Assembly (NCBI GenBank): GCA_965230945.1
Contig: OZ246397.1
Span: 539,925 to 603,924 of the forward strand
Source: an uncultured Gammaproteobacteria bacterium
Lineage (GTDB): Bacteria; Patescibacteriota; Microgenomatia; PFEM01; JAPLYW01
Length of the DNA stretch: 64,000 nucleotides
Direction of reading: 5' to 3'
Part shown: positions 1-49,390 of the stretch, one piece after another
Layout: each line of letters begins with the position of its first letter
Numbering within the stretch: position 1 is the first letter of the stretch
The notes under the pieces: model-generated
What the model was told of the DNA's origin: nothing
Seen by the model: the letters and a program-made list of their open reading frames with translations, nothing else
Database searches by the model: none
Translations under genes and position numbers: made by a program

Positions 1-1651
1 ACGTATCAATTAATTGGGCGGAAAGGGTGGCATTGCCTTGTTTAAAGGCCACAACTGCTAAGGTGGCTGTTACTAGACTGATTTGATTTTGATAGATGGG
101 TTCGTTGGGGCGAATATTAACAGCCTTTTGAAGTTCCTTGAAAGCTGAGTTTACATGACCGGCTTTATTTAATTTTTCACCTAAGGCAAGGCGGCTGTCG
201 GCATACCAATAACGAACCACAGAGGTAATTAGAGTCAAGGCTGAGATGAGAATAAAGGTAAGTGTAAGCAATTGCCATGTCCTTAATTTAAGATTTTTAT
301 TAATTATCATTTCTTTTTCTTGGGAAAGATTGATGACAAAGAAAGCCGGCAGGAGAAAAAACAAAAGGGCAACGACAACTACAGAGAAACCAAAAAAGTT
401 GGTTATTAAAATGCTTATAAAACCGGCCAGCAAGGCAAGGTTTAGACTATTTTGCTTTTTGATCGTCTTTTTTAGCCCCCAGATGAGAAAGGTGATGATT
501 AAGGTCAAATAGCCAAGTAAGCCAGCGGTTCCTGTAGTAGCGGCAAAGTTCAGGTATTCATTATGGGCTTTGTTGTATAAAAAATCCCATTCACTGATAT
601 CGTTATGCTCTCTGGGTCGATACCAGTAATAGGAATAAGCAAAGGTTTCTAGTCCAGTGCCAAAAAGAGGATGGTTTTTCCAGACAGCTAAGCCTCCTTT
701 CCAGACAATTTTGCGGATTTCTCCTGATTCGGTACCGCCTGAAGGAATTTGGTTTTCCTGGACTACAGCTTGTGGTTTTGCTTTTTTTGAGGCTAAATCT
801 TTAATACTTGGTGTCCAAGGAGTACCTGACAAAAAGGTAACCACAAAGACAAGGCCGGTGACGATAAGGAAGGGTTTAATAAGAACTTTAATTTGCTCTT
901 TGTTAAAGAAGACAATTCCTGCCCAAAAAATCAGATAGATAATGGCAAAGCCGATGATCCCAGAGCGTGATTTAGTATATAAAAGGCAAAGATAGAGAAT
1001 AAAGATTAAACCTAAATTTAGCCATCTAACTTTTTTGAAGTTTATTTTAAAAGGGAGGGGGTTTTGGTTTTTCAGGAAGAAGGCCATGGGGATGGTTAGT
1101 AGAGCTACCAACCAGGCTGCTAGCCAATTAGGTTGACCTAGGGTGGAAAAGACTCGGTTTTGGACATCTTGAACCCAAAAGCGGGCATCAATACCAAAAT
1201 GTTCGGCAATACCATAGAGAGAAACAATGGTAGCTGAAGCAAGAAGACAGCGGATGCCTGTAGTTAACTGGGTTTTTCCTATATTAGAAACAAAAGCCCA
1301 ATAAAGAATAAGATAGCTAAAGGTTGAAAGCAAGCCACCATTGAAACGAGAATAATAACCCCAAACTGAAGTATGGCGGTCGATTGAAAAGACAGTGGCT
1401 AAAACTTGAGTAATCAAGAAGATAAGCAGGGGTATATCCCAAAATGTTTTTTTAAAGATAATTTTTCGATTGAAAATCATTTTTATCAGCCAGGCTGTAA
1501 GAATGATAATGGTCAGAAGATAGACAAGCAGCATTTTGTTAAACTCAAAGAGTTCGTAGTTCCAAGGAGTCATTGTAAGAGGGACGAGGAAGAAAAGGAG
1601 ATAAAATGAGCCAGTAATTAGCCGATTGCAAATTCTTACGGGCTTTAACAT
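1..1651 (-). CDS. O-antigen ligase/polymerase-like (Wzy_C type) polytopic membrane protein with TPR-like tail; partial, 3-prime end lies outside the window
   Basis: Not in the ORF track because it runs off the left edge. Manual minus-strand translation from ATG (complement of 1649-1651) stays open to position 2: MLKPVRICNRLITGSFYLLFFLVPLTMTPWNYELFEFNKMLLVYLL... It is strongly hydrophobic, contains KAHNEYLNFAATTGTAG (O-antigen-ligase type motif) and ends in YWYADSRLALGEKLNKAGHVNSAFKELQKAVNIRPNEP (TPR-like). Confidence 0.6.
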   Translation of the reverse strand, partial: MLKPVRICNRLITGSFYLLFFLVPLTMTPWNYELFEFNKMLLVYLLTIIILTAWLIKMIFNRKIIFKKTFWDIPLLIFLITQVLATVFSIDRHTSVWGYYSRFNGGLLSTFSYLILYWAFVSNIGKTQLTTGIRCLLASATIVSLYGIAEHFGIDARFWVQDVQNRVFSTLGQPNWLAAWLVALLTIPMAFFLKNQNPLPFKINFKKVRWLNLGLIFILYLCLLYTKSRSGIIGFAIIYLIFWAGIVFFNKEQIKVLIKPFLIVTGLVFVVTFLSGTPWTPSIKDLASKKAKPQAVVQENQIPSGGTESGEIRKIVWKGGLAVWKNHPLFGTGLETFAYSYYWYRPREHNDISEWDFLYNKAHNEYLNFAATTGTAGLLGYLTLIITFLIWGLKKTIKKQNSLNLALLAGFISILITNFFGFSVVVVALLFFLLPAFFVINLSQEKEMIINKNLKLRTWQLLTLTFILISALTLITSVVRYWYADSRLALGEKLNKAGHVNSAFKELQKAVNIRPNEPIYQNQISLVTATLAVVAFKQGNATLSAQLIDT

Positions 1652-1700
1652 AAGTTTAAGTATACCATGGATAAAGTAAGTGTGATAAAATTGTTTTGAA

Positions 1701-2762
1701 ATGAAATTAGGACCACTTTCTTCGTTTATTTCTGCTGATTTGGGTATTGATTTAGGGACATCTAACACCCTTGTTTTGGTTCGAGGAAAGGGAATTGTCA
1801 TTAGAGAAGCTTCGGTTGTAACTCGCCATAAAAAAACCAAAGAAGTTTTGGCTATTGGGAGGAAAGCTAAAAAGATGGTAGGCAAAACCCCTCTTAACAT
1901 TGAAACAGTAAAGCCTCTTCAAGATGGAGTCATTGCTGATTTTGATGCCACCGTAGCCATGCTTTCTCATTTTATTCAGAGCCTTTCTAGGGGAGGGAAT
2001 TTGTTTTCTAAATTAGTCAAACCTCGAGTAGCTCTAGGTATTCCTTCAGGAGTAACTGAGGTAGAGAGAAGGGCTGTTCAAGATGCGGCCTTAAGTGCCG
2101 GAGCCAGAAAAGCTTATTTGATAGAAGAACCTATGGCGGCTGTTATAGGTTTAAACTTATCTATTGATCAGCCACAGGGAATTTTAATCGTTGATGTTGG
2201 TGGAGGAACAACGGAAATCGCCTTAATTTCTTTAGGGGGTATTGTCGTTGATCGCTGTTTAAGAATTGCTGGTGATGAGATGGATCAAGCCATTATTAAT
2301 TTTATTAAATTGAAGTACTCCTTGCTTTTAGGACAGGCGACAGCAGAAGATTTGAAGATTCAGCTTGGTTCAGCTTTAGCTCCTAAGGTAGAAGATGGGA
2401 AGGAAAGACAGTTGGTAGTCCGAGGCAGAGATTTAGAATCAGGTTTGCCTAAGTCAATCAAAATCCAAAGCAGTGAAGTTAGAGAGGCGATAGCGCCGGT
2501 TATTCGCCAAATTATTGATCAAATTTCTGATCTGGTTGAAGAGGCCCCGCCTGAATTGGTGACCGATATTGTTGGCAAGGGAATTGTTCTTTGTGGGGGG
2601 GGAGCCTTAATAGCTAATTTGGATAAATTGATTGCTGAAGAAACAAAAATGCCAGTTTGGGTGGCAGATGAACCGCAGACTTGCGTTGTTAGGGGTTGTG
2701 CTAAGTTACTTTCAGATGAGAAACTACTTAATAAGTTTAAAGTAATTGGTGGTTTAAGGTAA
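1701..2762 (+). CDS. mreB: Rod shape-determining actin-like protein MreB
   Basis: DLGIDLGTSNTLV phosphate-1 motif, DVGGGTTEIA, LCGGGALI; followed by mreC/mreD/PBP2. Confidence 0.95.
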   Translation: MKLGPLSSFISADLGIDLGTSNTLVLVRGKGIVIREASVVTRHKKTKEVLAIGRKAKKMVGKTPLNIETVKPLQDGVIADFDATVAMLSHFIQSLSRGGNLFSKLVKPRVALGIPSGVTEVERRAVQDAALSAGARKAYLIEEPMAAVIGLNLSIDQPQGILIVDVGGGTTEIALISLGGIVVDRCLRIAGDEMDQAIINFIKLKYSLLLGQATAEDLKIQLGSALAPKVEDGKERQLVVRGRDLESGLPKSIKIQSSEVREAIAPVIRQIIDQISDLVEEAPPELVTDIVGKGIVLCGGGALIANLDKLIAEETKMPVWVADEPQTCVVRGCAKLLSDEKLLNKFKVIGGLR

Positions 2763-2815
2763 ATTGCTCTTTTAATTTTAAATATTTAAGTAAAAATTAG
2801 GTAAGGGAGGCAAAA

Positions 2816-3214
2816 ATGTTTTGGAAAGTTTTTTGGGGGATTTGGATTGTTCTTGCTGTTCTGTGCATAGGATTTTTTATGTATTACTTAGCTACATTGC
2901 CAGAGGTCAGTTTTCTATTAGAGGAAAACAAGACGCTTAGTGAAGTTGATGTAACTTGTAGTTCTGGTCCTAGTGAAGTAACTGTGGTGTGGGAAAAACT
3001 AGGAAATGACGGAAAGCCGATAACAGAAAGTTTCAGTGCACCAGGGAGCGGATTTCTGAACTTGATTAAATCAAGGCATATTCAAGAAAGTAGGCAAGGG
3101 AGAGAACTATTCATAACACTTAAACCATTTTGGCTTGCTCTTTATTTCTTTTGGAGTGTTTTATTCGTTTCTACAATAATGGTTTTAAGATACATTTTTA
3201 AAACACTAAGATAG
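2816..3214 (+). CDS. Hypothetical membrane protein (N- and C-terminal TM helices)
   Basis: SD-like GGGAGG 6 nt upstream of the ATG; hydrophobic termini; no recognisable family. Confidence 0.4.
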   Translation: MFWKVFWGIWIVLAVLCIGFFMYYLATLPEVSFLLEENKTLSEVDVTCSSGPSEVTVVWEKLGNDGKPITESFSAPGSGFLNLIKSRHIQESRQGRELFITLKPFWLALYFFWSVLFVSTIMVLRYIFKTLR

Positions 3215-3286
3215 CGGTGATATTATATTACTGCATAGTCATTACCGCTATCTTGATCTTCCTCCCTTGCCTTTCTTTATTAGAAG

Positions 3287-3309
3287 AGTCGCTTAAAAGA
3301 CGACTTTTT
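3287..3309 (+). terminator. Rho-independent terminator-like hairpin
   Basis: AGTCG (3287-3291) pairs with CGACT (3301-3305), followed by a T-run; downstream of 2816-3214. Confidence 0.45.
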
Positions 3310-3359
3310 GGTGTAAGAATTCTATAGGATTTAATTATTTGGAAGTTATAGGGCTAAAC

Positions 3360-3388
3360 TTGACAAACTCTATAGGATATGGTATTCT
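3360..3388 (+). promoter_or_regulatory. Sigma70-like promoter candidate
   Basis: TTGACA (3360-3365), 17 nt spacer, TATTCT (3383-3388); upstream of 3491-3676. Confidence 0.35.
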
Positions 3389-3490
3389 AGCATTTAGAAA
3401 TAGGCAGAAGCTTGTTTCTTATCGCACATTACAAATAGGGCAAGAAACGTAGTAATCATGTAAAAAAGAATCGAGTAAGGAGTAAAAGAA

Positions 3491-3676
3491 ATGGAAAAGA
3501 GTCGTAGGAAGAGAACTGTTTGGGGTTATTTCCGCCTTGTAATCCAAATCGTAGTGATTGCAATAGTTGGTATTATGGTAGCGATTGCTATTTTAAGCAG
3601 AGCTGGCTTAAAAGATTTGATATTCGTTATAGTGGTGGGAATAATCTTGCTTGTAATCAGTCGTTTTTGTGACTAA
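3491..3676 (+). CDS. Small two-TM membrane protein, hypothetical
   Basis: SD AAGGAG upstream; basic N-terminus (KSRRKR) then two hydrophobic helices. Confidence 0.4.
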   Translation: MEKSRRKRTVWGYFRLVIQIVVIAIVGIMVAIAILSRAGLKDLIFVIVVGIILLVISRFCD

Positions 3677-3729
3677 TAGTTTTAGTTAAACTTTGCCTGT
3701 GGGGGCATGGCTTTAAGCTAGGAGGAAGA

Positions 3730-3849
3730 ATGATTATTATTGGAACGATTATTTCAGGGATTTTTATTTGCACAGCAGTTTTGCTTATAGGTAACGGTAA
3801 GTTATCTAAAATAATATCTCATGGAAAATCGTATAGAAATAGGTGGTAA
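3730..3849 (+). CDS. Small hydrophobic peptide (39 aa), hypothetical; below the ORF-track size cut-off
   Basis: Manual read: GGAGG 5 nt upstream of ATG 3730; MIIIGTIISGIFICTAVLLIGNGKLSKIISHGKSYRNRW, stop at 3847-3849. Confidence 0.3.
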   Translation: MIIIGTIISGIFICTAVLLIGNGKLSKIISHGKSYRNRW

Positions 3850-3937
3850 GTTTGGTGGCGAGGATTCGTTCTAATTGCGGATTATTATCCTCCTATCAAA
3901 CTCAACCTAAATTTTCTTGCCCTTTTTTTTCAAGAAG

Positions 3938-3960
3938 GTCGCCTAACCAGCGGCTTTTTT
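3938..3960 (+). terminator. Rho-independent terminator
   Basis: GTCGC (3938-3942) pairs with GCGGC (3950-3954) including one G-U pair, 7-nt loop, then T6 (3955-3960). Confidence 0.5.
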
Positions 3961-3987
3961 GTTGGCTTTCTATGTTAGAATAAGGCG

Positions 3988-4788
3988 ATGAAAGATAAGT
4001 GGTTTAAAAAGATAAGCTTTTTATTTTTAGCTTTGGTATTACTTTCTTTTTTACTCTTTTGGTTTGATAAACAAAGTTGGATTTCTCCTCTTTTTGCTTT
4101 AATTAGAAAACCCATTAATAAGACGGAGGAAAGCTTCTTTAATTCTTATAGATATTTTTCTTCTTTTTTTTCTTTTTCAGGCAGAAAAGCTAGTGAAAAA
4201 AAGATTATTAATCTTGAGGGTAAATTACATTATCTGGCTTTAGATCAGAATGAATTGACTTCCTGCTTAGAAGAGAATAAAAGAATAAAAAGATTATTGG
4301 GGGCTTCTTTGCCTATTAAATGGAAATTTATGGAAGCCAAGGTTATTGGTGTTTCAGAGAAAATGAAGATCGCCAGAGGTAAAAGGGATGGCCTGGAAGA
4401 GGGAGTAAATGTTATTTCTGAAGATGTTTTGGTGGGCAAGGTAGTTTTCGTGGATGAAGATAGCAGTTTGGTACAATTGGTCAATGATCCTAGCTCTAAG
4501 ATTCCGGTGGTAGTTAAAAGGCCTAAGATGGCTGGTTTTCAAGCCAGAGGTCTTTTATTTGGGCAGTCAGGGAAGACCTTACTTTTAGATAGGGTACTGC
4601 AGGCAGAATTTATTCAGAAGGGGGACTTGGTAGTGAGTAGTGGCGATGAGGGTTGGTTACCAGATTTATTAATTGGGCAGATAGAAGAAGTTTCTCCCAA
4701 GTCAGCTGAGGTTTATCAAAAAGCGAGTGTTAGTCCCTTAGTTAATTATCGGGGTTTAAGTCTCGTTTTTCTTGTTGTCCGCCAATGA
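3988..4788 (+). CDS. mreC: Rod shape-determining protein MreC
   Basis: N-terminal TM helix, coiled segment, beta-rich C-terminus (GDLVVSSG, LLIGQIEEV); position between mreB and mreD. Confidence 0.85.
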   Translation: MKDKWFKKISFLFLALVLLSFLLFWFDKQSWISPLFALIRKPINKTEESFFNSYRYFSSFFSFSGRKASEKKIINLEGKLHYLALDQNELTSCLEENKRIKRLLGASLPIKWKFMEAKVIGVSEKMKIARGKRDGLEEGVNVISEDVLVGKVVFVDEDSSLVQLVNDPSSKIPVVVKRPKMAGFQARGLLFGQSGKTLLLDRVLQAEFIQKGDLVVSSGDEGWLPDLLIGQIEEVSPKSAEVYQKASVSPLVNYRGLSLVFLVVRQ

Positions 4789-5219
4789 AAGCTTATTTAA
4801 TTTTATTACCAGTTTTTTTTCTAGCTCTTTTACAGGGGTCCTTTTTAGGCTTTAATTTGGTTCTTTTGCTGGTTTTGTTTTATGTAGTTTTAAAGCAGAA
4901 TAGACAGAGTTTATGGGTAGCTTTTTGGTCTGGCTTAATTTTGGATTTGGCCAAAGGTCATTACTTAGGGCTTTCTGCCTTGATCTTTTTGTTTTTTAGT
5001 TTCTTGTTGATTTTATATTTCCGTCGCTTTCAGGCAACTAATTGGCTTTTTTTGGTAATTTTTGTGGCTCTTTTTTCTGGTGCTTATTCTCTTTTGGTTT
5101 ATCGCTTTTTTGATTGGAAAGAAGTTTTGTTTTTAATTATTTTGGCTCTTTTAGTACGCTTCATCTTAAGATTTTTCTCTATAGAATTGGCAACTAAACA
5201 GATAAGATTAAGGAATTAA
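4785..5219 (+). CDS. mreD: Rod shape-determining protein MreD
   Basis: ATGA overlap with mreC; about 5 TM helices; synteny. Confidence 0.7.
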   Translation: MKAYLILLPVFFLALLQGSFLGFNLVLLLVLFYVVLKQNRQSLWVAFWSGLILDLAKGHYLGLSALIFLFFSFLLILYFRRFQATNWLFLVIFVALFSGAYSLLVYRFFDWKEVLFLIILALLVRFILRFFSIELATKQIRLRN

Positions 5220-6854
5220 ATGGATAACAAAACACGAGTTTATATTTTCTTAGGCTTTTTAATTATTGGTTTCCTGCTTTTAACAGCTCGTTTATTTGAA
5301 CTGCAGATAGTTTTTGGTTCTAAAAACAGAGTTTTAGCTGAGGGTAACAGAATTAAAAAAGAGATTATTCCTGCTCCTCGAGGGATTATTTACGACCGTT
5401 ATGGTAGGGAGTTGGTAAGAAACATACCTCTTTACCGACTAAAGATTGAGAACGAACAGTGCAAGGATGAAGATAAAGATTGCTTTAGGATAATTTCCCG
5501 GGAAGAAGCCTTGAGTTTAGAAGCAAAAGGAGATGTAGATAATCTACAAATAAACATTGGTCGTAATTATTTATATAAAGAATCTTTAGCTCATGTTTTA
5601 GGTTACCTAGGAGAGGCAACTAAAGAGGAAGTAGAGTTAGGCAAATTTAAAATGGGAGATTTAGTGGGGCGAATGGGGGTAGAGGAAGAATATGATTATC
5701 TATTACGAGGCCAAGATGGAGGTGTAATTTACGAAGTTGATACTCATGGAAATAGAATTAGAGAAATTGGACGGGTTGAACCCGTACCAGGAAAAGATTT
5801 ACATCTTACCATTGATGCCGAGCTTTCTGCCAAAGCCTATGAAGCCTTGGGAGGCCAAACGGGAGCCATAGTTGTTTCTAGGGTAGATGGTAATGAGATT
5901 TTAGCTTTAGTCTCTTCGCCTGCCTTTAATCCTAACCTTTTAAGTAGGACAGATGGTGAAGGTGATAGGCTAACTAAAAAAGTTCAAGAATTATTTGATA
6001 ATCCTAATAAACCTTTTTTTAATCGGGCCATTAGCGGGGTTTATCCACCTGCTTCGACTTTTAAAATTGTAACCGCCGTTGCCGGTTTAGAAGAAGAAAA
6101 GATTGATAAAGATACCATTTGGAATGATACCGGTGAAATAAGAGTAGGCGAATATGTTTACCGGAACTGGTACTTCATTCAATACGGCAAGACAGAGGGG
6201 GAGATTAATTTAATAACAGCTATTAAACGATCCACAGATACTTTTTTTTACAAGGTAGGTGAGTGGGTGGGCCCAACTCGTTTATCTGAATGGGCAACAG
6301 CTTTTGGTTTAGGCCAAAAGACTGGCATTGCTCTTCCAGGAGAAACGAAGGGTTCTGTTCCCAGTCCAAAGGAAAAAGAAAGATTGAAAGGCGAACGATG
6401 GTTTTTAGGAAATACTTATCATTTTGCTATTGGCCAGGGAGATATCTTAACTACTCCTTTACAAATTAATACTATGACTAGTGTTATTGCCAATGATGGT
6501 GAATTATGTTCTCCCATGGTATGGAAAGAGGAAAAAAAGAACTGTCAGAACTTAAGACTTAAGCAAGAATCTTTAAAGTTAGTTAAAGAGGGAATGAAAG
6601 AGGCTTGCTCGCCAAAAGGAACAGCTTTTCCTTTCTTTGAATTTAAACCTCAAGTGGCTTGTAAAACGGGAACAGCTGAATTTGGTGATCCGCAAAACAA
6701 AACTCATGCTTGGTTGACTGCTTTTGCTCCCTTTTCAGAAGATGGCAAAGCAGAAATTGTGGCCACGGCTCTAGTAGAAAAGGGTGGTGAAGGTTCTTAT
6801 ATAGCTGCGCCTATAGTCAAAAAGGTAATGGAGTATTATTTCCATGAAAGATGA
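5220..6854 (+). CDS. mrdA: Penicillin-binding protein 2 (elongasome transpeptidase)
   Basis: PAPRGIIYDRYG, PASTFKIVTA (SxxK), KTGTAE (KTG); follows mreBCD. Confidence 0.9.
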   Translation: MDNKTRVYIFLGFLIIGFLLLTARLFELQIVFGSKNRVLAEGNRIKKEIIPAPRGIIYDRYGRELVRNIPLYRLKIENEQCKDEDKDCFRIISREEALSLEAKGDVDNLQINIGRNYLYKESLAHVLGYLGEATKEEVELGKFKMGDLVGRMGVEEEYDYLLRGQDGGVIYEVDTHGNRIREIGRVEPVPGKDLHLTIDAELSAKAYEALGGQTGAIVVSRVDGNEILALVSSPAFNPNLLSRTDGEGDRLTKKVQELFDNPNKPFFNRAISGVYPPASTFKIVTAVAGLEEEKIDKDTIWNDTGEIRVGEYVYRNWYFIQYGKTEGEINLITAIKRSTDTFFYKVGEWVGPTRLSEWATAFGLGQKTGIALPGETKGSVPSPKEKERLKGERWFLGNTYHFAIGQGDILTTPLQINTMTSVIANDGELCSPMVWKEEKKNCQNLRLKQESLKLVKEGMKEACSPKGTAFPFFEFKPQVACKTGTAEFGDPQNKTHAWLTAFAPFSEDGKAEIVATALVEKGGEGSYIAAPIVKKVMEYYFHER

Positions 6855-11717: not shown

Positions 11718-13097
11718 TTATTTTATTTTCTTAAGATTGAGGACCTTTAGAGATTTAGTGGATATTTTTGAAGGTGCTCCCATTAGTAAATCACGGCCTT
11801 CACCTGTTTTCGGAAAAGCAATTACCTCTCTGATATTTGTTTCGCCACATAGTACAGTAGCAAGACGATCGAAACCAAACGCTATTCCTCCATGTGGCGG
11901 TGGTGAAAATTTAAAGGCTTCGAGCATGTGTCCAAATCTGTTTTGCACTTCGCTCTCTGGTAAACCAAGAATCTCAAAAACTTTATGTTGTAAAACTCCA
12001 TCCGATATTCTTATGCTTCCTCCGGCAATTTCGTACCCATTCAAAACTAAATCGTAACCTAAGGCCTTTATTTTTAATAATTCTTTTTCGGGTTTGTTAA
12101 GATCCTCAACGCTTTTAATTTTCGGTTTAGTAAAAGGATGGTGTACAGCTGAAATTTTATTCTCTGTTGGGCCAATTTCAAACATTGGAGAATCTACTAC
12201 CCAACAAAAAGCCAACTCGTTGGGGTCATTGGGATTTTTTCGCGTATCAGGCTTGTCTGTATTGTATTTTTTCATAACGTAATCATAGGTATAAATTGGG
12301 AATTTACCAGCTGGAAGTTTTAAATAGGGGGTAACCTTTCTTATTACAGAAGAAACGGCTGTTTCAGCTAAATTCATAATGTCATCCTGTTCACAAAAAG
12401 ACATTTCAATATCGATCTGGGTAAATTCTGGTTGACGATCTTTTCGCAAATCTTCATCTCTGAAACACCTGGCTAGTTGGTAATATCGTTCTATTCCTGC
12501 TACCATCAAAAGTTGTTTAAATTGTTGAGGAGACTGAGGAAGAACGTATCCTTCGCCTGGATATAAACGGGATGGTACTATATACTCTCTAGCACCCTCG
12601 GGCGTTCCTTTTGTCAAAGCGGGCGTTTCAATTTCTATAAATCCATTTTCATCAAAGAAATTTCTAAAAGCGCTGGCCAGTTTGGCTCTCGTAATGATAT
12701 TTTTACGCATACGTTCAGTTCTTAAATCCAAATAACGGTACTTTAATCGCAATGACTCATCTACAGTTGAAGTGTTTTCATTTACATTAAAGGGAAGTGG
12801 AGCACATTTTGAGATAATCTTTATTGCTTCCGCTACTAATTCAATTTTTCCGAGTTCCTGCTCGGGGTTCACCGTTTGGGATGACCTTTTTTTAATGACC
12901 CCCTTTACCAAAATAAGATCCTCAAGCCCATAGTCCTGTACTAACAAATCTTTACCCAACACAACCTGGATACGTGCTGTCCGGTCGTATAAATCAATAA
13001 ATCCAACTTTAGAATGTTTTCTAAAACGGGAGATCCATCCTAGAGCTTTAACTTCTTTGCCAATATGAGTTTTCAGAGTTAAAATATCGATTTTCAT
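11718..13097 (-). CDS. aspS: Aspartyl-tRNA synthetase, bacterial type but lacking the GAD insertion domain (459 aa)
   Basis: OB-fold N-terminus, PQSPQQFKQLLM, FRDEDLRKDRQPEFTQIDIEMSF (motif 2), HHPFTKP, NGYEIAGGSIRI, PPHGGIAFGFDRL (motif 3). Only about 12 aa lie between KPDTR and FCWVVDSPMFE, where E. coli AspRS carries about 130 aa. Confidence 0.85.
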   Translation of the reverse strand: MKIDILTLKTHIGKEVKALGWISRFRKHSKVGFIDLYDRTARIQVVLGKDLLVQDYGLEDLILVKGVIKKRSSQTVNPEQELGKIELVAEAIKIISKCAPLPFNVNENTSTVDESLRLKYRYLDLRTERMRKNIITRAKLASAFRNFFDENGFIEIETPALTKGTPEGAREYIVPSRLYPGEGYVLPQSPQQFKQLLMVAGIERYYQLARCFRDEDLRKDRQPEFTQIDIEMSFCEQDDIMNLAETAVSSVIRKVTPYLKLPAGKFPIYTYDYVMKKYNTDKPDTRKNPNDPNELAFCWVVDSPMFEIGPTENKISAVHHPFTKPKIKSVEDLNKPEKELLKIKALGYDLVLNGYEIAGGSIRISDGVLQHKVFEILGLPESEVQNRFGHMLEAFKFSPPPHGGIAFGFDRLATVLCGETNIREVIAFPKTGEGRDLLMGAPSKISTKSLKVLNLKKIK

Positions 13098-13102
13098 AGG
13101 AT

Positions 13103-15094
13103 TTAAGGTATTATGTCATATTCTGACCTCGGAAACAAAAAGAGGTCGCTTAAACTTCTTAAGTTAAGTAGTTTAACTAGAAATCTGTCGATACTCAAAC
13201 AGAAACCTCCATGTGGCCTTGGATTTTGAAACGCGTTCAAATAGAATTGATATTTCTTGTGTTTTAATCCTGTTCCTTTTATGCCCTTCAGAAGTTTTTC
13301 GTAATCAGTTTCACGAATAGCCCCCGATGCTATTTCCCAACCTTTATAAATAACATCGAAGCTTAATGTTTTATCCTCCCTATCATGCTTTACATAAAAC
13401 TTTTTTACAGAGCTGGGATATTTTATTATTGCGAACAAATCAGTTTTGTACTTATCTTTGACAATCTTACCAAGCATTTCCTCAAGATCATATCCAAAAT
13501 CTATCCCGTAAGCGACTTTCCCACTTGTGCCTTTGCTATTTAGAAGGCTAAGGGCATCTTCGTAGGTAATTGTTTTTATGGTCTTATTAACTACTTGAGA
13601 TTTTGATATTTCCTTATTTTCATATAGTTTTTTTGTAATCACATTCAATAGAGTTCCCAATAAAGCAATCAGTTGATTTAAATTTTCAACATTAGCCATT
13701 TCTATATCTAAGCCATATGCTTCGGATAAATGCCTAGGAGTTGGGTTTAGTTCTGCTCTCCAAAAAGGACCTAGCTCAAAAAGTTTGTCTATGCCAGAAA
13801 GTATTAAGATCTGTTTATATAATTGGTTTGATTGCCTTAAAAGCATTTTTCTTCCGTACCAATTTACTGTAAAAATTTCCTCGTCTGGATTGTCTCGTAC
13901 GGGGTCAGTTGACACTGCAGTTATTGTGGGAGTATGAATTTCAACAAAACCGAGATATAAAAGTGTCTTTCGAGTAATAAAATAGGCATCACTTTTAAGT
14001 TTAATATTTGGGATTTTGGATTTATAAATTTCGCTATTGATACGAAAGTTTTCGCGTCTGGCATTTTCTTTTAAACTATAGATCATAGCATCCACAGCTT
14101 TTGTTACAGATGTTGAGATAATATCTTTTGCTATAGAGATACTATTTTGCCTTAATTTCTTATTGTATTGTGAATATTCATTTATTGATTTTAGATCATA
14201 AATTTCGTAAAGATTTTTGACTAAAAGAGTATTTTGCGGTGTCCCTAAATCGTATATGAGACAGTATTTGATAGTGCTCAAAAAATCTAGTTGTTCTTTT
14301 TTGAATACATTCGGTGTGGCGAAAAAGATGATGATAGGTTTTACTTTCAAGTTTTTGATGGTATTTAGTCGAACTGCCTTCTTGGCTATTTTATCCTTGA
14401 CTAGTTTTTTTGCTTTATTAATAGTTCTATTTGCTATAACTAGATTTTTATACCCTTTTTCGTTGAGGACTTTACATAACAAACTCCCTGTCGAGCCAGC
14501 ACCAACAATTAGAATGTATGCATCTTGGGGAATCGATCTTTTAATCATCATATCTACGGCTGTTCTTTCCGCAGAGACATTTCCTTTACCAATGTCTGTT
14601 GCATTTCTAACAGCATTTGAGACCTTTCTCGCATTGTTAAAGATTGTTTTTAAAACGATTCCGGCCGTTTTATCATCCGAGGCAATACTTATCGCTTGAC
14701 GTACTTGACCCGTAACCTGATTATCTCCTAAAGTTACACTTTTAAGTCCGCAGGCGGTTTCAAATAAATGCTCAATTACCTTTTTGCCAGAATATTGACA
14801 GATATCGGATATCTTGAAGGAGTTTGGTTTTTGAGATTGCTTCTTCCATAAATTCGTTATTCCGTCCTTATTATCTTCCGCAGCCACATAGTAGATTTCC
14901 ACACAATTGCATTTACTTAGAATTACGCATTCATCCAATCGATATTCATTCTGGAGTTCTTTCGCAAAAGACCGGTGATTTTTAATTAAGTAGGTTTGTA
15001 AAGATTGAAGGTCTCCTGTACCCATTAATGCAGAAAGACAGTGAATCTTTTCTAGTATGTTTTTTGTAATTTTATTTTGGAGCACTAGTGGCAA
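13103..15094 (-). CDS. Fusion protein: glutamyl-tRNA reductase (HemA)-like N-terminal catalytic and NADPH domains joined to an archaeal/eukaryal-type Asp/AsnRS class IIb catalytic core; no anticodon-binding domain
   Basis: GluTR-like motifs: LSKCNCVEIY, GLKSVTLGDNQVTGQVRQA, ARKVSNAVRNATDIG, ILIVGAGSTGSLLCKVLNEKGYKNLVIANRTINKAKKL. aaRS motifs from about aa 365: GFVEIHTPTI, LRQSNQLYKQ, FWRAELNPTPRHLSEAYGLDIEMA, GWEIASGAIRE, PRPHGGFCLSIDRF, FPRS. TTG start as in the ORF track; the stop is 5 nt before the aspS start. Confidence 0.75.
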   Translation of the reverse strand: MPLVLQNKITKNILEKIHCLSALMGTGDLQSLQTYLIKNHRSFAKELQNEYRLDECVILSKCNCVEIYYVAAEDNKDGITNLWKKQSQKPNSFKISDICQYSGKKVIEHLFETACGLKSVTLGDNQVTGQVRQAISIASDDKTAGIVLKTIFNNARKVSNAVRNATDIGKGNVSAERTAVDMMIKRSIPQDAYILIVGAGSTGSLLCKVLNEKGYKNLVIANRTINKAKKLVKDKIAKKAVRLNTIKNLKVKPIIIFFATPNVFKKEQLDFLSTIKYCLIYDLGTPQNTLLVKNLYEIYDLKSINEYSQYNKKLRQNSISIAKDIISTSVTKAVDAMIYSLKENARRENFRINSEIYKSKIPNIKLKSDAYFITRKTLLYLGFVEIHTPTITAVSTDPVRDNPDEEIFTVNWYGRKMLLRQSNQLYKQILILSGIDKLFELGPFWRAELNPTPRHLSEAYGLDIEMANVENLNQLIALLGTLLNVITKKLYENKEISKSQVVNKTIKTITYEDALSLLNSKGTSGKVAYGIDFGYDLEEMLGKIVKDKYKTDLFAIIKYPSSVKKFYVKHDREDKTLSFDVIYKGWEIASGAIRETDYEKLLKGIKGTGLKHKKYQFYLNAFQNPRPHGGFCLSIDRFLVKLLNLRSLSDLFLFPRSEYDIIP

Positions 15095-24043: not shown

Positions 24044-24883
24044 ATGAAAAGAATTGTTATTCATATTAATCCAGATTTGGATGCTGTTGCTTCAGTTTGG
24101 CTTATCAAAAGATTTTTGCCTCGTTGGGAAAAAGCAGAAATAGGTTTCTGTCAGGCAGAAACAACTTTTGATGGGAAGCCAGTAGATAGTGATCCTGATA
24201 TTTTACATCTTGATGTTGGTTTAGGTAAACTTGATCATCATCAAACTGATTGTTTTACTTCGGCAGTTAAACTCACTTTAGATTTCATCTTAGAAAAAAG
24301 AAAAGGACAAGAGTTGAGCCCTTTAGATTTAGAGGCTTTAGAGCTCATGGTAGAAACGATTAATGAAATTGATAATGCGCGAGATTTGAATTGGCCGGAA
24401 GTTAAAAAAGAGCGTTATGATTTTTATCTCCATTCTATTTTAAGTGGTTTAAGAAGAATGGGGAAAACTGATATTGAACTAGTTGAATACGGTTTTTTAG
24501 GGCTAAATGCTGTTTTTAAGAATCTTAAAGCAGGGATAAAAGCCAAAGAAGAAATAAAAAAGGGGATTGAATTTCAGACTCCTTGGGGAAAGGCAATTGC
24601 CTTGGAGACCGGTAATGAATTATTTTTATGGGAAAGTGAAAAAGCTGGTTATTATTTAGTGGTTAAAAAGGATCCTGACGATGGTGATGTTAGAATTTAT
24701 GCTCGTTATGATAGTGATGTTGATTTGAAAAATGTTTATCAAAAATTTAAAGAGATGGATAAAGAATCTGATTGGTTTTTACACGCTTCCGGTAAGTTGT
24801 TATTAAATGGATCTCGGGTTAAAAAGATGAAACCAACAAAGTTAAGTTTAGAGCAAGTAATTGGGGTGTTGAAAAATGGTTGA
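24044..24883 (+). CDS. DHH-family phosphoesterase-like protein
   Basis: HINPDLDAVAS (DHH motif I), HLDVG, KLDHHQ (motif III); no DHHA1 GGGH seen. ATG 24044 is preferred over TTG 24026. Confidence 0.45.
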   Translation: MKRIVIHINPDLDAVASVWLIKRFLPRWEKAEIGFCQAETTFDGKPVDSDPDILHLDVGLGKLDHHQTDCFTSAVKLTLDFILEKRKGQELSPLDLEALELMVETINEIDNARDLNWPEVKKERYDFYLHSILSGLRRMGKTDIELVEYGFLGLNAVFKNLKAGIKAKEEIKKGIEFQTPWGKAIALETGNELFLWESEKAGYYLVVKKDPDDGDVRIYARYDSDVDLKNVYQKFKEMDKESDWFLHASGKLLLNGSRVKKMKPTKLSLEQVIGVLKNG

Positions 24884-25199
24884 TTGTATTTTTTGTCAAA
24901 TTGCTCAAAAAAAGATACCAGCAGAGATTGTTTATGAAGATAAAAAGATCATTGCTTTTAATGATGTTAACCCTAAAGCACCTGTCCATATCTTAATTAT
25001 TCCTAAGAAACATATTAAAGATTTTATTAGTTCTGGAAAATTCTTTCCTAAGATTTTAAAAGTTGCTAAAGACTTAATTAAAAAGTATAATTTAGATAGG
25101 AATGGTTATAGATTAGTAGTCAATGGCAGGAGTGCAGCGCTTGTCGATCATTTACATTTACATCTTTTAGGAAAAATAACTGTTGATAGGAATGTTTAG
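24876..25199 (+). CDS. HIT (histidine triad) family nucleotide hydrolase
   Basis: CIFCQI zinc-like start, AFNDVNPKAPVHILIIPKKH, HLHLHLLG triad. The C-terminal half (NGRSAALVDHLHLHLLGK) is off-consensus. Confidence 0.85.
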   Translation: MVDCIFCQIAQKKIPAEIVYEDKKIIAFNDVNPKAPVHILIIPKKHIKDFISSGKFFPKILKVAKDLIKKYNLDRNGYRLVVNGRSAALVDHLHLHLLGKITVDRNV

Positions 25200-25236
25200 G
25201 GGAAGTTATTCTAATAGGGTAAATTATTTTTAAGTA

Positions 25237-25307
25237 CGGGGCGTAGCTCAAAATAGAGCAGCGTACTTGGTGTACGATGTATAGTGGTTTAAATCCATTC
25301 GCCCCGA
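25237..25307 (+). tRNA. Aberrant tRNA-Pro(UGG)-like gene, 71 nt, no encoded CCA
   Basis: Hand-folded cloverleaf. Acceptor CGGGGCG/CGCCCCG with C1:G72 and A73 (bacterial tRNA-Pro identity). D arm GCTC-AAAATA-GAGC (no G18G19). Anticodon arm GCGTA-CTTGGTG-TACGA (anticodon TGG at 25268-25270, U at position 37, 27:43 mismatch). T arm AGTGG-TTTAAAT-CCATT (no C56). Confidence 0.65.
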
Positions 25308-25343
25308 CAAATTTAAAGAGATTAAGAAATAATATGATTTTCT

Positions 25344-49303: not shown

Positions 49304-49390
49304 TGCCGTGGGTCGGAGTCGAACCGACACGAGCTTTAAAGGCTCACAGGTTTTTGAGACCTGCGCGTCTACCAGTTCCGCCACCACGGC
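49304..49390 (-). tRNA. tRNA-Leu(CAA), type II with long variable arm, 87 nt
   Basis: Reverse complement GCCGTGGTGGCGGAACTGGTAGACGCGCAGGTCTCAAAAACCTGTGAGCCTTTAAAGCTCGTGTCGGTTCGACTCCGACCCACGGCA. Canonical GG in the D loop, anticodon loop CTCAAAA, T loop TTCGACT, acceptor GCCGTGG/CCACGGC, A73. Confidence 0.9.

Follow-up and report, generated by a model that had tools for sequence, protein, structure and literature searches.

The locus described here lies in a 64-kb stretch of contig OZ246397.1 (the window, i.e., the whole stretch of DNA that was analysed, from a genome of ~615 kb), in which a 71-nt gene of the tRNA-Pro(UGG) type is located directly in front of proS, the gene of the prolyl-tRNA synthetase (ProRS), and of a group of genes encoding synthetase paralogs. 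An earlier reading made from the sequence alone (hereafter the sequence-only reading) had folded this element by hand as an aberrant cloverleaf. The observation is confirmed and the interpretation given with it is borne out in part; the parts of the element are the following:

25237..25307, + strand: non-canonical tRNA-Pro(UGG)-type gene, 71 nt, recognized by Rfam RF00005, by its minimum free energy (MFE) fold and by 13 copies with covariation
Acceptor stem CGGGGCG/CGCCCCG: 7 bp, with C1:G72; A73 is position 25307
25250..25255, + strand: D loop AAAATA, 6 nt, without G18/G19, on the D stem GCTC/GAGC
Anticodon stem GCGTA/TACGA: G27 (25261) is opposite A43 (25277)
25266..25272, + strand: anticodon loop CUUGGUG (C32, U33, U34 G35 G36, U37, G38)
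25288..25294, + strand: T loop UUUAAAU, with U56 replacing C56, on the T stem AGTGG/CCATT

The full sequence is CGGGGCG-UA-GCUC-AAAAUA-GAGC-A-GCGUA-CUUGGUG-UACGA-UGUAU-AGUGG-UUUAAAU-CCAUU-CGCCCCG-A, and all the sequence details given for the hand-folded cloverleaf match it. C1:G72, A73 and the anticodon UGG (U34 G35 G36, 25268-25270) are present as claimed, and the departures from the usual tRNA plan are also found where they had been described, namely a D loop without G18G19, a T loop without C56, U37 (25271) instead of G and the G27-A43 mismatch. The variable loop has the normal 5 nt, two bases separate the acceptor and D stems, and the third base of the D loop (A, 25252) is the partner of the T-loop base 25290. 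CCA is not encoded in the window copy, A73 being followed by CA. Reading the anticodon one base further on (GGU) was weighed by hand and discarded, the complementarity of the stem centring the 7-nt/5-nt loop on UGG.

When run with permissive filters, the RF00005 model matches exactly positions 25237-25307, with 46.2 bits against a gathering threshold of 29 and E = 1.1e-6 over the whole 64-kb window. The MFE fold of the element is the cloverleaf (-28.5 kcal/mol, z = -4.3 relative to shuffled sequences), in which C32:G38 closes a 5-nt anticodon loop in the window copy. The tRNA covariance model, to which the sequence-only reading had wished to submit the element, accepts it, and ARAGORN does not: in the window this program lists only a tRNA-Leu(CAA), and it also misses the element in three relatives (L006, L023 and L024). 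The default Rfam gathering run on the 64 kb likewise lists only tRNA-Leu(CAA), the element being lost to the speed filters despite a score 17 bits above the threshold. The element is real, and both standard detectors miss it for technical reasons. Since ARAGORN and filtered Infernal fail to list it, an inventory of the tRNAs of such a genome can be in error, and routine annotation of these genomes would under-count their tRNAs whatever the function of the element.

Contigs of relatives were gathered as members of the ProRS clade and through a scan of metagenome DNA with a pattern blind to genomic context and carrying N at position 37, and 13 distinct copies of the element, window included, were aligned; the tRNA content discussed below is that of the window and of these contigs. 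Homologues of the ProRS clade share 66-100% identity, every other homologue being at or below 49%. The pattern scan returned nine contigs with the element, and ProRS is directly 3' of it on every one of them having downstream DNA. Wherever such DNA exists, the two genes are on the same strand at a distance of 28-76 nt, the sequence of the spacer is not conserved among relatives, and the upstream gene varies (HIT, LeuA, a tRNA array in L016 or hypothetical genes). The element of the window sits before the ProRS/paralog operon, as the sequence-only reading had claimed, and its linkage to proS is conserved in the relatives. Neither the element nor the paralogs were present at three outgroup ProRS loci of Patescibacteria, no copy was found in the viral contigs scanned, and the ProRS search of genome contigs returned only an unrelated Clostridia locus (L001). 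Our own covariance model of the family (R1) gives 93.3 bits to the window copy and finds no further copy in the window, in the outgroup loci or in L025, a distant paralog module. With the Rfam tRNA model the copies of the relatives score 37-50 bits, the L006 copy alone failing. Homologues of topoisomerase I point to Patescibacteria, the closest named relatives belonging to Shapirobacteria and the Microgenomates group (66-69% identity), and the element is specific to one small Microgenomatia (Patescibacteria) lineage.

Some of these contigs have particularities of their own. In L016 (11324-12436) the element comes after an array of tRNA-Leu(CAG), Leu(GAG), Val(UAC) and Phe(GAA), with a gap of ~425 nt containing a small open reading frame (ORF). 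In L019 (525-1954) the ProRS match is split into two overlapping segments, suggesting a frameshift or an internal duplication, and in L017 a further class IIa synthetase-like gene (12499-13587), 24% identical to ProRS, is located ~2.4 kb upstream of the element.

The alignment of the 13 sequences gives strong indications of constraint. The cloverleaf pairing is respected in 94.6% of the cells, against 25-60% in slid registers, six pairs are changed on both sides, and the observed covariation score was unmatched by any shuffle. Apart from G27·A43, the stems of the 12 intact copies are paired throughout, and the three other unpaired cells all belong to L006. The covariation of the D and T loops among homologs, which the sequence-only reading had proposed to examine, is indeed found across the 13 copies: for the pair between the two loops (columns 16:54, the 19:56 pair), 11 copies have G:C, L004 has G·U and the window has A:U. 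The replacement of G19:C56 by A:U had been guessed from the window alone. The window and L004 being sister sequences, the passage from G:C to G·U to A:U is one evolutionary path. Averaged over the columns, identity is 89%. Little or no variation is seen in the acceptor stem, A73, U8, A14, A21 and the D stem, and C32, U34 G35 G36, G38 and the G27·A43 mismatch are invariant in the 13 copies. The D loop is AA(G/A)NNA everywhere, with 6 nt and no G18. Among universal features, U8, A14, A21, G53, U55 and R57 are kept, as is C61 in 12 of the 13 copies (U in L006), and position 74 is C in 12/13, like in the other CCA-less tRNA genes on these contigs. The family is conserved across a ProRS divergence down to ~61-65% identity, over which the flanks are unalignable. 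Judging from this pattern of substitutions, the element is a real tRNA gene under purifying selection.

Other positions that are nearly universal in tRNAs are relaxed, with independent changes inside the narrow clade. Position 37 is never a purine (U in 12 copies, C in L019), and 15:48 is A:U, A:C or A:A and not G15:C48. L008, L023 and L024 have C33 instead of U33, and the last two also have A54 instead of T54 (T loop ATCAATC). U56 replaces C56 in the window and in L004 (L004 T loop TTTAAGC), and U58 replaces A58 in L014 and L017 (T loop TTCATAT), the T loop of the relatives being otherwise TTCAANN. These particularities are not genome-wide, as had been proposed from the window: seven further tRNAs, carried by the window and by clade contigs, are canonical, i.e., Leu(CAA) in the window, Leu(CAG), Leu(GAG), Val and Phe in L016 and Lys and Arg in L009. 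They have G18G19, TTCRA T loops and a purine 37, with G37 after G36 in the three that have G36, and they reach 57-70 bits compared with 46 for the element. The tRNA-Leu(CAA) of the window is canonical, as claimed:

49304..49390, - strand: tRNA-Leu(CAA), canonical, 57.1 bits

The genes and signals around the element are organized as follows:

24876..25199, + strand: HIT-family hydrolase (Pfam HIT, DcpS_C), directly upstream of the element
25183..25212, + strand: weak candidate sigma-70-like promoter, TTGATA-18-TATTCT, 9/12 matches
25308..25343, + strand: AT-rich spacer of 36 nt without terminator, from the element to the proS start
25344..26792, + strand: canonical ProRS of the archaeal/eukaryote type (TIGR00408, 526 bits against a cut-off of 437; tRNA-synt_2b, HGTP_anticodon, ProRS-C_1)
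26801..27571, + strand: 256-aa ProRS-derived class II core-like protein without anticodon-binding domain
27568..28995, + strand: full-length divergent ProRS paralog (TIGR00408, 208 bits, under the cut-off)
28977..29912, + strand: Peptidase S66 of the LD-carboxypeptidase / MccF family (Pfam Peptidase_S66, S66C)
29924..31057, + strand: AsnRS/AspRS-type class II core without OB anticodon-binding domain, asparagine-synthetase-A-like (Pfam tRNA-synt_2)

The element occupies the 144-nt gap between the HIT and ProRS genes. The promoter match of the window is not above chance, being no commoner than in shuffled sequence in this AT-rich DNA; comparable or better promoter-like matches are located 9-57 nt upstream of the element in 8/14 loci. 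No terminator-like site was found between the element and proS. A five-codon ORF (MIFYE*, 25335-25350) overlaps the proS start codon; it is unconserved in the relatives and probably due to chance. The ProRS gene follows those of RRF and RseP, in agreement with the order RseP then ProRS of the outgroup locus L022, which indicates a housekeeping gene in its ancestral place. The 256-aa protein has weak matches to tRNA-synt_2b, to TIGR00408 and to residues 50-261 of the ProRS structure PDB 1nj8. The full-length paralog aligns end to end with archaeal-type ProRS, C-terminal zinc domain included, its best PDB match being the Methanocaldococcus (M.) jannaschii ProRS (E = 2.7e-45). It retains the R/E of motif 2, the S/R of motif 3, the PT.E motif and four zinc cysteines, and its pocket-lining motifs are altered (TSHxLG to NIYDLG and EGH to EGL). 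Its C-terminus is also changed, from ...AY to KWKGEK; in archaeal-type ProRS, the carboxylate of the C-terminal Tyr reaches the active site. Owing to the retained catalytic residues and the changed pocket motifs, the paralog probably remains active in adenylate formation, with a substrate pocket that has been modified. The S66 protein matches the NCBIfam muramoyltetrapeptide carboxypeptidase at 138 bits, under the cut-off, and the AsnRS-core-like protein matches the catalytic domains of AsnRS in PDB and archaeal AsnA, the NCBIfam asnS and asparagine synthetase A models being under their cut-offs. Pfam and NCBIfam scans of the operon proteins give only class II synthetase-like and S66 domains, and no Fem/GNAT-type transferase.

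The element and the paralog module co-occur in one clade. Nine of the 13 copies are on contigs reaching past ProRS (contigs L015, L016, L018 and L019 end in or before it), and in all of these except L006 the paralog is located two genes downstream. L006 is the only member of the clade without paralogs, and its ProRS nests in the L008/L023/L024 group, with 84% identity to L023. Compared with the L023 element, the L006 element shows 14 changes over 71 positions and that of L008 only three, though the L008 ProRS is the more distant of the two (80% vs 84%). The L006 element has two mismatches in the acceptor stem and one in the T stem, the anticodon arm remaining nearly intact; it is too low for Rfam listing, obtains 75 bits with R1, where the others reach 93-100, and its fold has ceased to be a cloverleaf (z = -0.36). 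The decay of the element in the absence of the paralogs suggests that the gene became dispensable once the paralogs were gone, which fits an accessory tRNA better than a sole tRNA-Pro(UGG).

Taken together, the pyrimidine at position 37, the missing G18, the C32:G38 pair, the changes to C33, A54, U56 and U58 in sub-lineages and the canonical state of the neighbouring tRNAs make an accessory second tRNA-Pro the most likely identity of the element. In elongator tRNAs, positions such as these are held constant by decoding on the ribosome, by delivery through EF-Tu and by the common modification enzymes. The accessory tRNA would be aminoacylatable, tied to the proS/paralog operon and outside the normal constraints of decoding; we propose this reading tentatively, with a confidence that falls somewhat short of an even chance. 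The element would be the first gene of a transcription unit running into proS and the synthetase-paralog module, which comprises the ProRS-core-like protein, the full-length ProRS paralog, usually the S66 peptidase, and the AsnRS-core-like protein. The precursor would be released by RNase P at its 5' end and by a 3' endonuclease, CCA would be added enzymatically, and prolylation would proceed through the anticodon and acceptor identity set. The product could then be a substrate, a cofactor or a decoy for the enzymes of the operon rather than a routine reader of CCN codons.

Several data bear on this proposal. The identity set for aminoacylation of bacterial tRNA-Pro consists of A73, C1:G72, G35 and G36 (PMC9976931); G35, G36 and A73 are found in the 13 copies and C1:G72 in the 12 intact ones. 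The E. coli-type G37 (m1G37) and the G15:C48 Levitt pair are absent from the family. The canonical elongator set (U33, purine 37, G18G19, T54-Psi55-C56 and A58) is incomplete, the window copy being devoid of G18/G19 and carrying U56 and U37, and the D and T loops are aberrant relative to the other tRNAs of the organism. Special-purpose tRNAs with aberrant D/T loops or with a linked ProRS paralog have precedents (PMC7826273, PMC10404621). Our literature searches for tRNA-Pro with a pyrimidine 37 or for odd tRNA-Pro genes in Patescibacteria returned nothing relevant.

The sequence-only reading had seen in the element a possible dedicated, non-ribosomal substrate of the full-length ProRS paralog. 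The shared clade, the decay in L006 and the relaxed decoding positions are compatible with this idea and favor it; the position of the element against the canonical ProRS and the lack of such a tRNA within 11.7 kb in L025 weigh on the other side. A natural pair made up of this tRNA, which would avoid the ribosome, and of the divergent paralog as its dedicated synthetase appears improbable. In such a pair, the paralog would load the tRNA with something other than proline or pass prolyl-tRNA on to the other class II paralogs, either for a tRNA-dependent synthesis off the ribosome or to recode Pro codons in a controlled way.

Part of the data weighs against an accessory tRNA as well. The L006 argument relies on one contig, and the genome of L006 could contain a functional copy that was relocated. 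The element adjoins the canonical ProRS and not the paralog. In L025, whose paralog module is distant (40% identity), neither ProRS nor a tRNA of this kind is present within 11.7 kb. The part of L025 concerned (24-6208) encodes a 256-aa partner, a PF00152 class II core of the D/K/N type (345 aa) and a GT2 glycosyltransferase, and adjoins GlyRS, with no tRNA of any sort beside it; the paralog family extends to Myxococcus (P0151, 29% identity). In L007, the paralog is split in two ORFs although the element is intact, which may be an assembly error: the ORFs (4317-5755; 344 and 136 aa) have overlapping tblastn segments, as expected from a frameshift or such an error. A second, canonical tRNA-Pro(UGG) was not seen in the 64-kb window of the ~615-kb genome. 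Redundant tRNAs are, to our knowledge, rare in small Patescibacteria genomes, and a set of three tRNA-Pro genes is assumed to mean one per isoacceptor. Three is the number given for complete Microgenomatia genomes in Table S2 of PMC13011429. Finally, a 32:38 pair capable of Watson-Crick pairing also exists in decoding tRNAs (PMC7826273), so that C32:G38 alone is not diagnostic.

The rarity of spare tRNAs in small genomes and the three tRNA-Pro genes of that table also speak for the strongest competing explanation, which we consider unlikely without being remote: the element would be the ordinary and only tRNA-Pro(UGG) of the clade, used in translation but drifted, and placed beside proS through a shared promoter. 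The 89% mean column identity, the invariance of the anticodon, acceptor stem and A73, the tertiary pair of the L-shape kept by covariation and the 3' end in the style of tRNA genes would all suit such a gene, and the element stands beside the housekeeping ProRS even without paralogs, in L006. U37, unable to pair with the fourth codon base, could even avoid +1 slippage without m1G37. However, the other G36 tRNAs of the clade keep G37, and the m1G37 system therefore seems to be in use; moreover, we know of almost no elongator tRNA with a pyrimidine 37 or with C33. The independent changes at 33, 54, 56 and 58 in one narrow clade are also difficult to reconcile with an ordinary elongator, and the decay of the L006 copy would be unexpected for an essential single-copy tRNA. 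In a different kind of explanation, the element would act in cis as a tRNA mimic in the 5' leader of proS, either mediating feedback by ProRS through G35/G36 and the acceptor end or setting the 5' end of the mRNA as an RNase P/Z signal. The autoregulation of E. coli thrS by a tRNA-like operator shows that synthetase genes can be controlled in this manner, and the invariable placing of the element ahead of proS, on its strand, at 28-76 nt and with no terminator between, the promoter-like sites upstream of the element and not in the spacer in most loci, the invariance of the ProRS identity elements while decoding-related positions are relaxed, and the nearly intact anticodon arm of L006 beside its decaying acceptor and T arms can all be read in its favor. 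On the other hand, the spacer varies in length and sequence, unlike that of an operator overlapping the ribosome-binding site (RBS), the pairing of leader with trailer or of the element with the RBS is at chance level, the cloverleaf folding independently, and a pure processing signal has no need of an invariant Pro anticodon. In addition, the intact acceptor stem, A73 and C74 imply that RNase P and the 3' enzymes would excise the element, leaving no cis effect. A cis-acting role is in our view quite improbable. A search for Rfam leader families and T-box at the element gave no family but tRNA at E <= 1. Leader-trailer pairing around the cloverleaf, suggestive in the window, was not above shuffles over the 13 loci and was discarded.

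The sequence-only reading had also considered a pseudo-tRNA and a former integration target, and both are abandoned for the window copy; even together they retain a very small share of probability. A decaying pseudogene or relic, which is very unlikely, would account for the absence of an ARAGORN call, for a score of 46 bits compared with 57-70 for the canonical tRNAs on the same contigs, and for the existence of a homologous copy, that of L006, which is truly decayed. Disrupted stems without compensation, expected from a pseudogene, are indeed observed in L006 but not in the window, where the stems are perfect bar the clade-invariant G27·A43 and the two unusual loop bases compensate each other (A19:U56). 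The stems pair in the 12 intact copies with covariation, and the family is conserved while its flanks are unalignable. Extremely unlikely, finally, is a former attachment (att) target of a mobile element that delivered the paralog operon. tRNA genes are common integration sites and the paralog module is clade-specific, but no duplicated tRNA 3' half was found anywhere in the window, flanking direct repeats are not beyond chance, and there is no integrase in the window. Neither an integrase nor an att repeat bounding the module was seen in the 13 loci either. The canonical ProRS separates the element from the paralogs, the linkage to proS is conserved, and the absence of the element from the outgroups indicates that it is not an older integration target.

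Aminoacyl-nucleotide antibiotics directed against AspRS are detoxified by HIT as well as by MccF enzymes (PMC7157772). The HIT/S66/AsnRS-core module could serve to protect the cell from inhibitors of synthetases instead of forming a biosynthetic pathway. The HIT hydrolase recurs by the operon in several relatives: in L004 and L015 its gene comes before the element, and in L014 and L017 it comes after the paralog. At a distance from the operon, a 663-aa ORF (13103-15094, - strand) has the N-terminal and NAD(P)-binding domains of glutamyl-tRNA reductase fused to a class II core of the Asp/Asn/Lys type, and it adjoins a canonical OB-fold class II synthetase (11718-13097, - strand). This fusion may represent another tRNA-dependent non-ribosomal activity, reducing an aminoacyl-tRNA made in cis.

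If the element is an accessory tRNA, it would be the third natural bacterial tRNA with a sense anticodon that is kept off routine decoding or paired with a synthetase paralog, the first two being the staphylococcal tRNA-Gly and the Streptomyces tRNA-ProX. Genomes as small as this one rarely keep spare genes, and an accessory tRNA here would suggest that the three class II paralogs have a tRNA-dependent activity still to be characterised; a dedicated pair, if real, would give the Patescibacteria a new pathway dependent on aminoacyl-tRNA. Should the element be the sole tRNA-Pro(UGG) instead, an elongator would work with a pyrimidine 37, and with C33 in some species, in cells where m1G37 targets are apparently kept, which bears on why m1G37 and TrmD are deemed essential for proline decoding.

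Among known systems, the nearest parallel is the tRNA-ProX/ProRSx of Streptomyces and Kitasatospora, in which an anomalous tRNA built on a tRNA-Pro body is in an operon with a divergent ProRS paralog, extra to the canonical ProRS (PMC10404621). Its distribution is also sporadic and lineage-restricted, and its operon also contains a gene of the cell-wall type, murG there and the S66 LD-carboxypeptidase-family gene here (PMC10404621). In contrast, the anticodons of tRNA-ProX are AGC, AGU and AUU, which lead to mistranslation, and ProRSx derives from the bacterial-type ProRS (PMC10404621), whereas the element has UGG in 13/13 copies and the paralog derives from the archaeal/eukaryote type. The element moreover adjoins the canonical ProRS, and two further class II paralogs are present. 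The non-proteogenic tRNA-Gly of Staphylococcus share with the element aberrant D/T loops, a sense anticodon and a potential sixth pair in the anticodon stem leaving a 5-nt loop, and they are extra isoacceptors (PMC7826273). They are charged by the normal synthetase, bind EF-Tu and the ribosome weakly and are used non-ribosomally (PMC7826273). Unlike the element, which is linked to proS, their genes are unlinked to glyS, and the Fem-type transferase has no counterpart among the operon proteins here.

The organization also recalls pylT-pylS. The tRNA-Pyl gene is the first of its operon, immediately before the synthetase genes, and in tRNA-Pyl the D loop is short and lacks G18G19, the T loop is non-canonical and the anticodon stem is extended; gene order, reduced D/T loops and extended anticodon stem are thus common to both. 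However, tRNA-Pyl reads a stop codon and PylRS ignores the anticodon, whereas the sense anticodon of the element is the main identity element for ProRS, and the element differs by its normal 5-nt variable loop and the two linker bases between the acceptor and D stems. Like the thrS operator of E. coli, it is a tRNA-like structure with the cognate anticodon located before the gene of a cognate class IIa synthetase, but that operator mimics anticodon arms only and abuts the RBS, while the element is a full processable cloverleaf 28-76 nt from the start codon. In the E. coli thrU-tyrU-glyT-thrT-tufB operon, tRNA genes also head an operon with a translation gene, these tRNAs being canonical and not cognate to the downstream protein. 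The element corresponds to the full definition of none of the families compared, and we class it as a variant among the special-purpose tRNAs whose genes are linked to a synthetase paralog.

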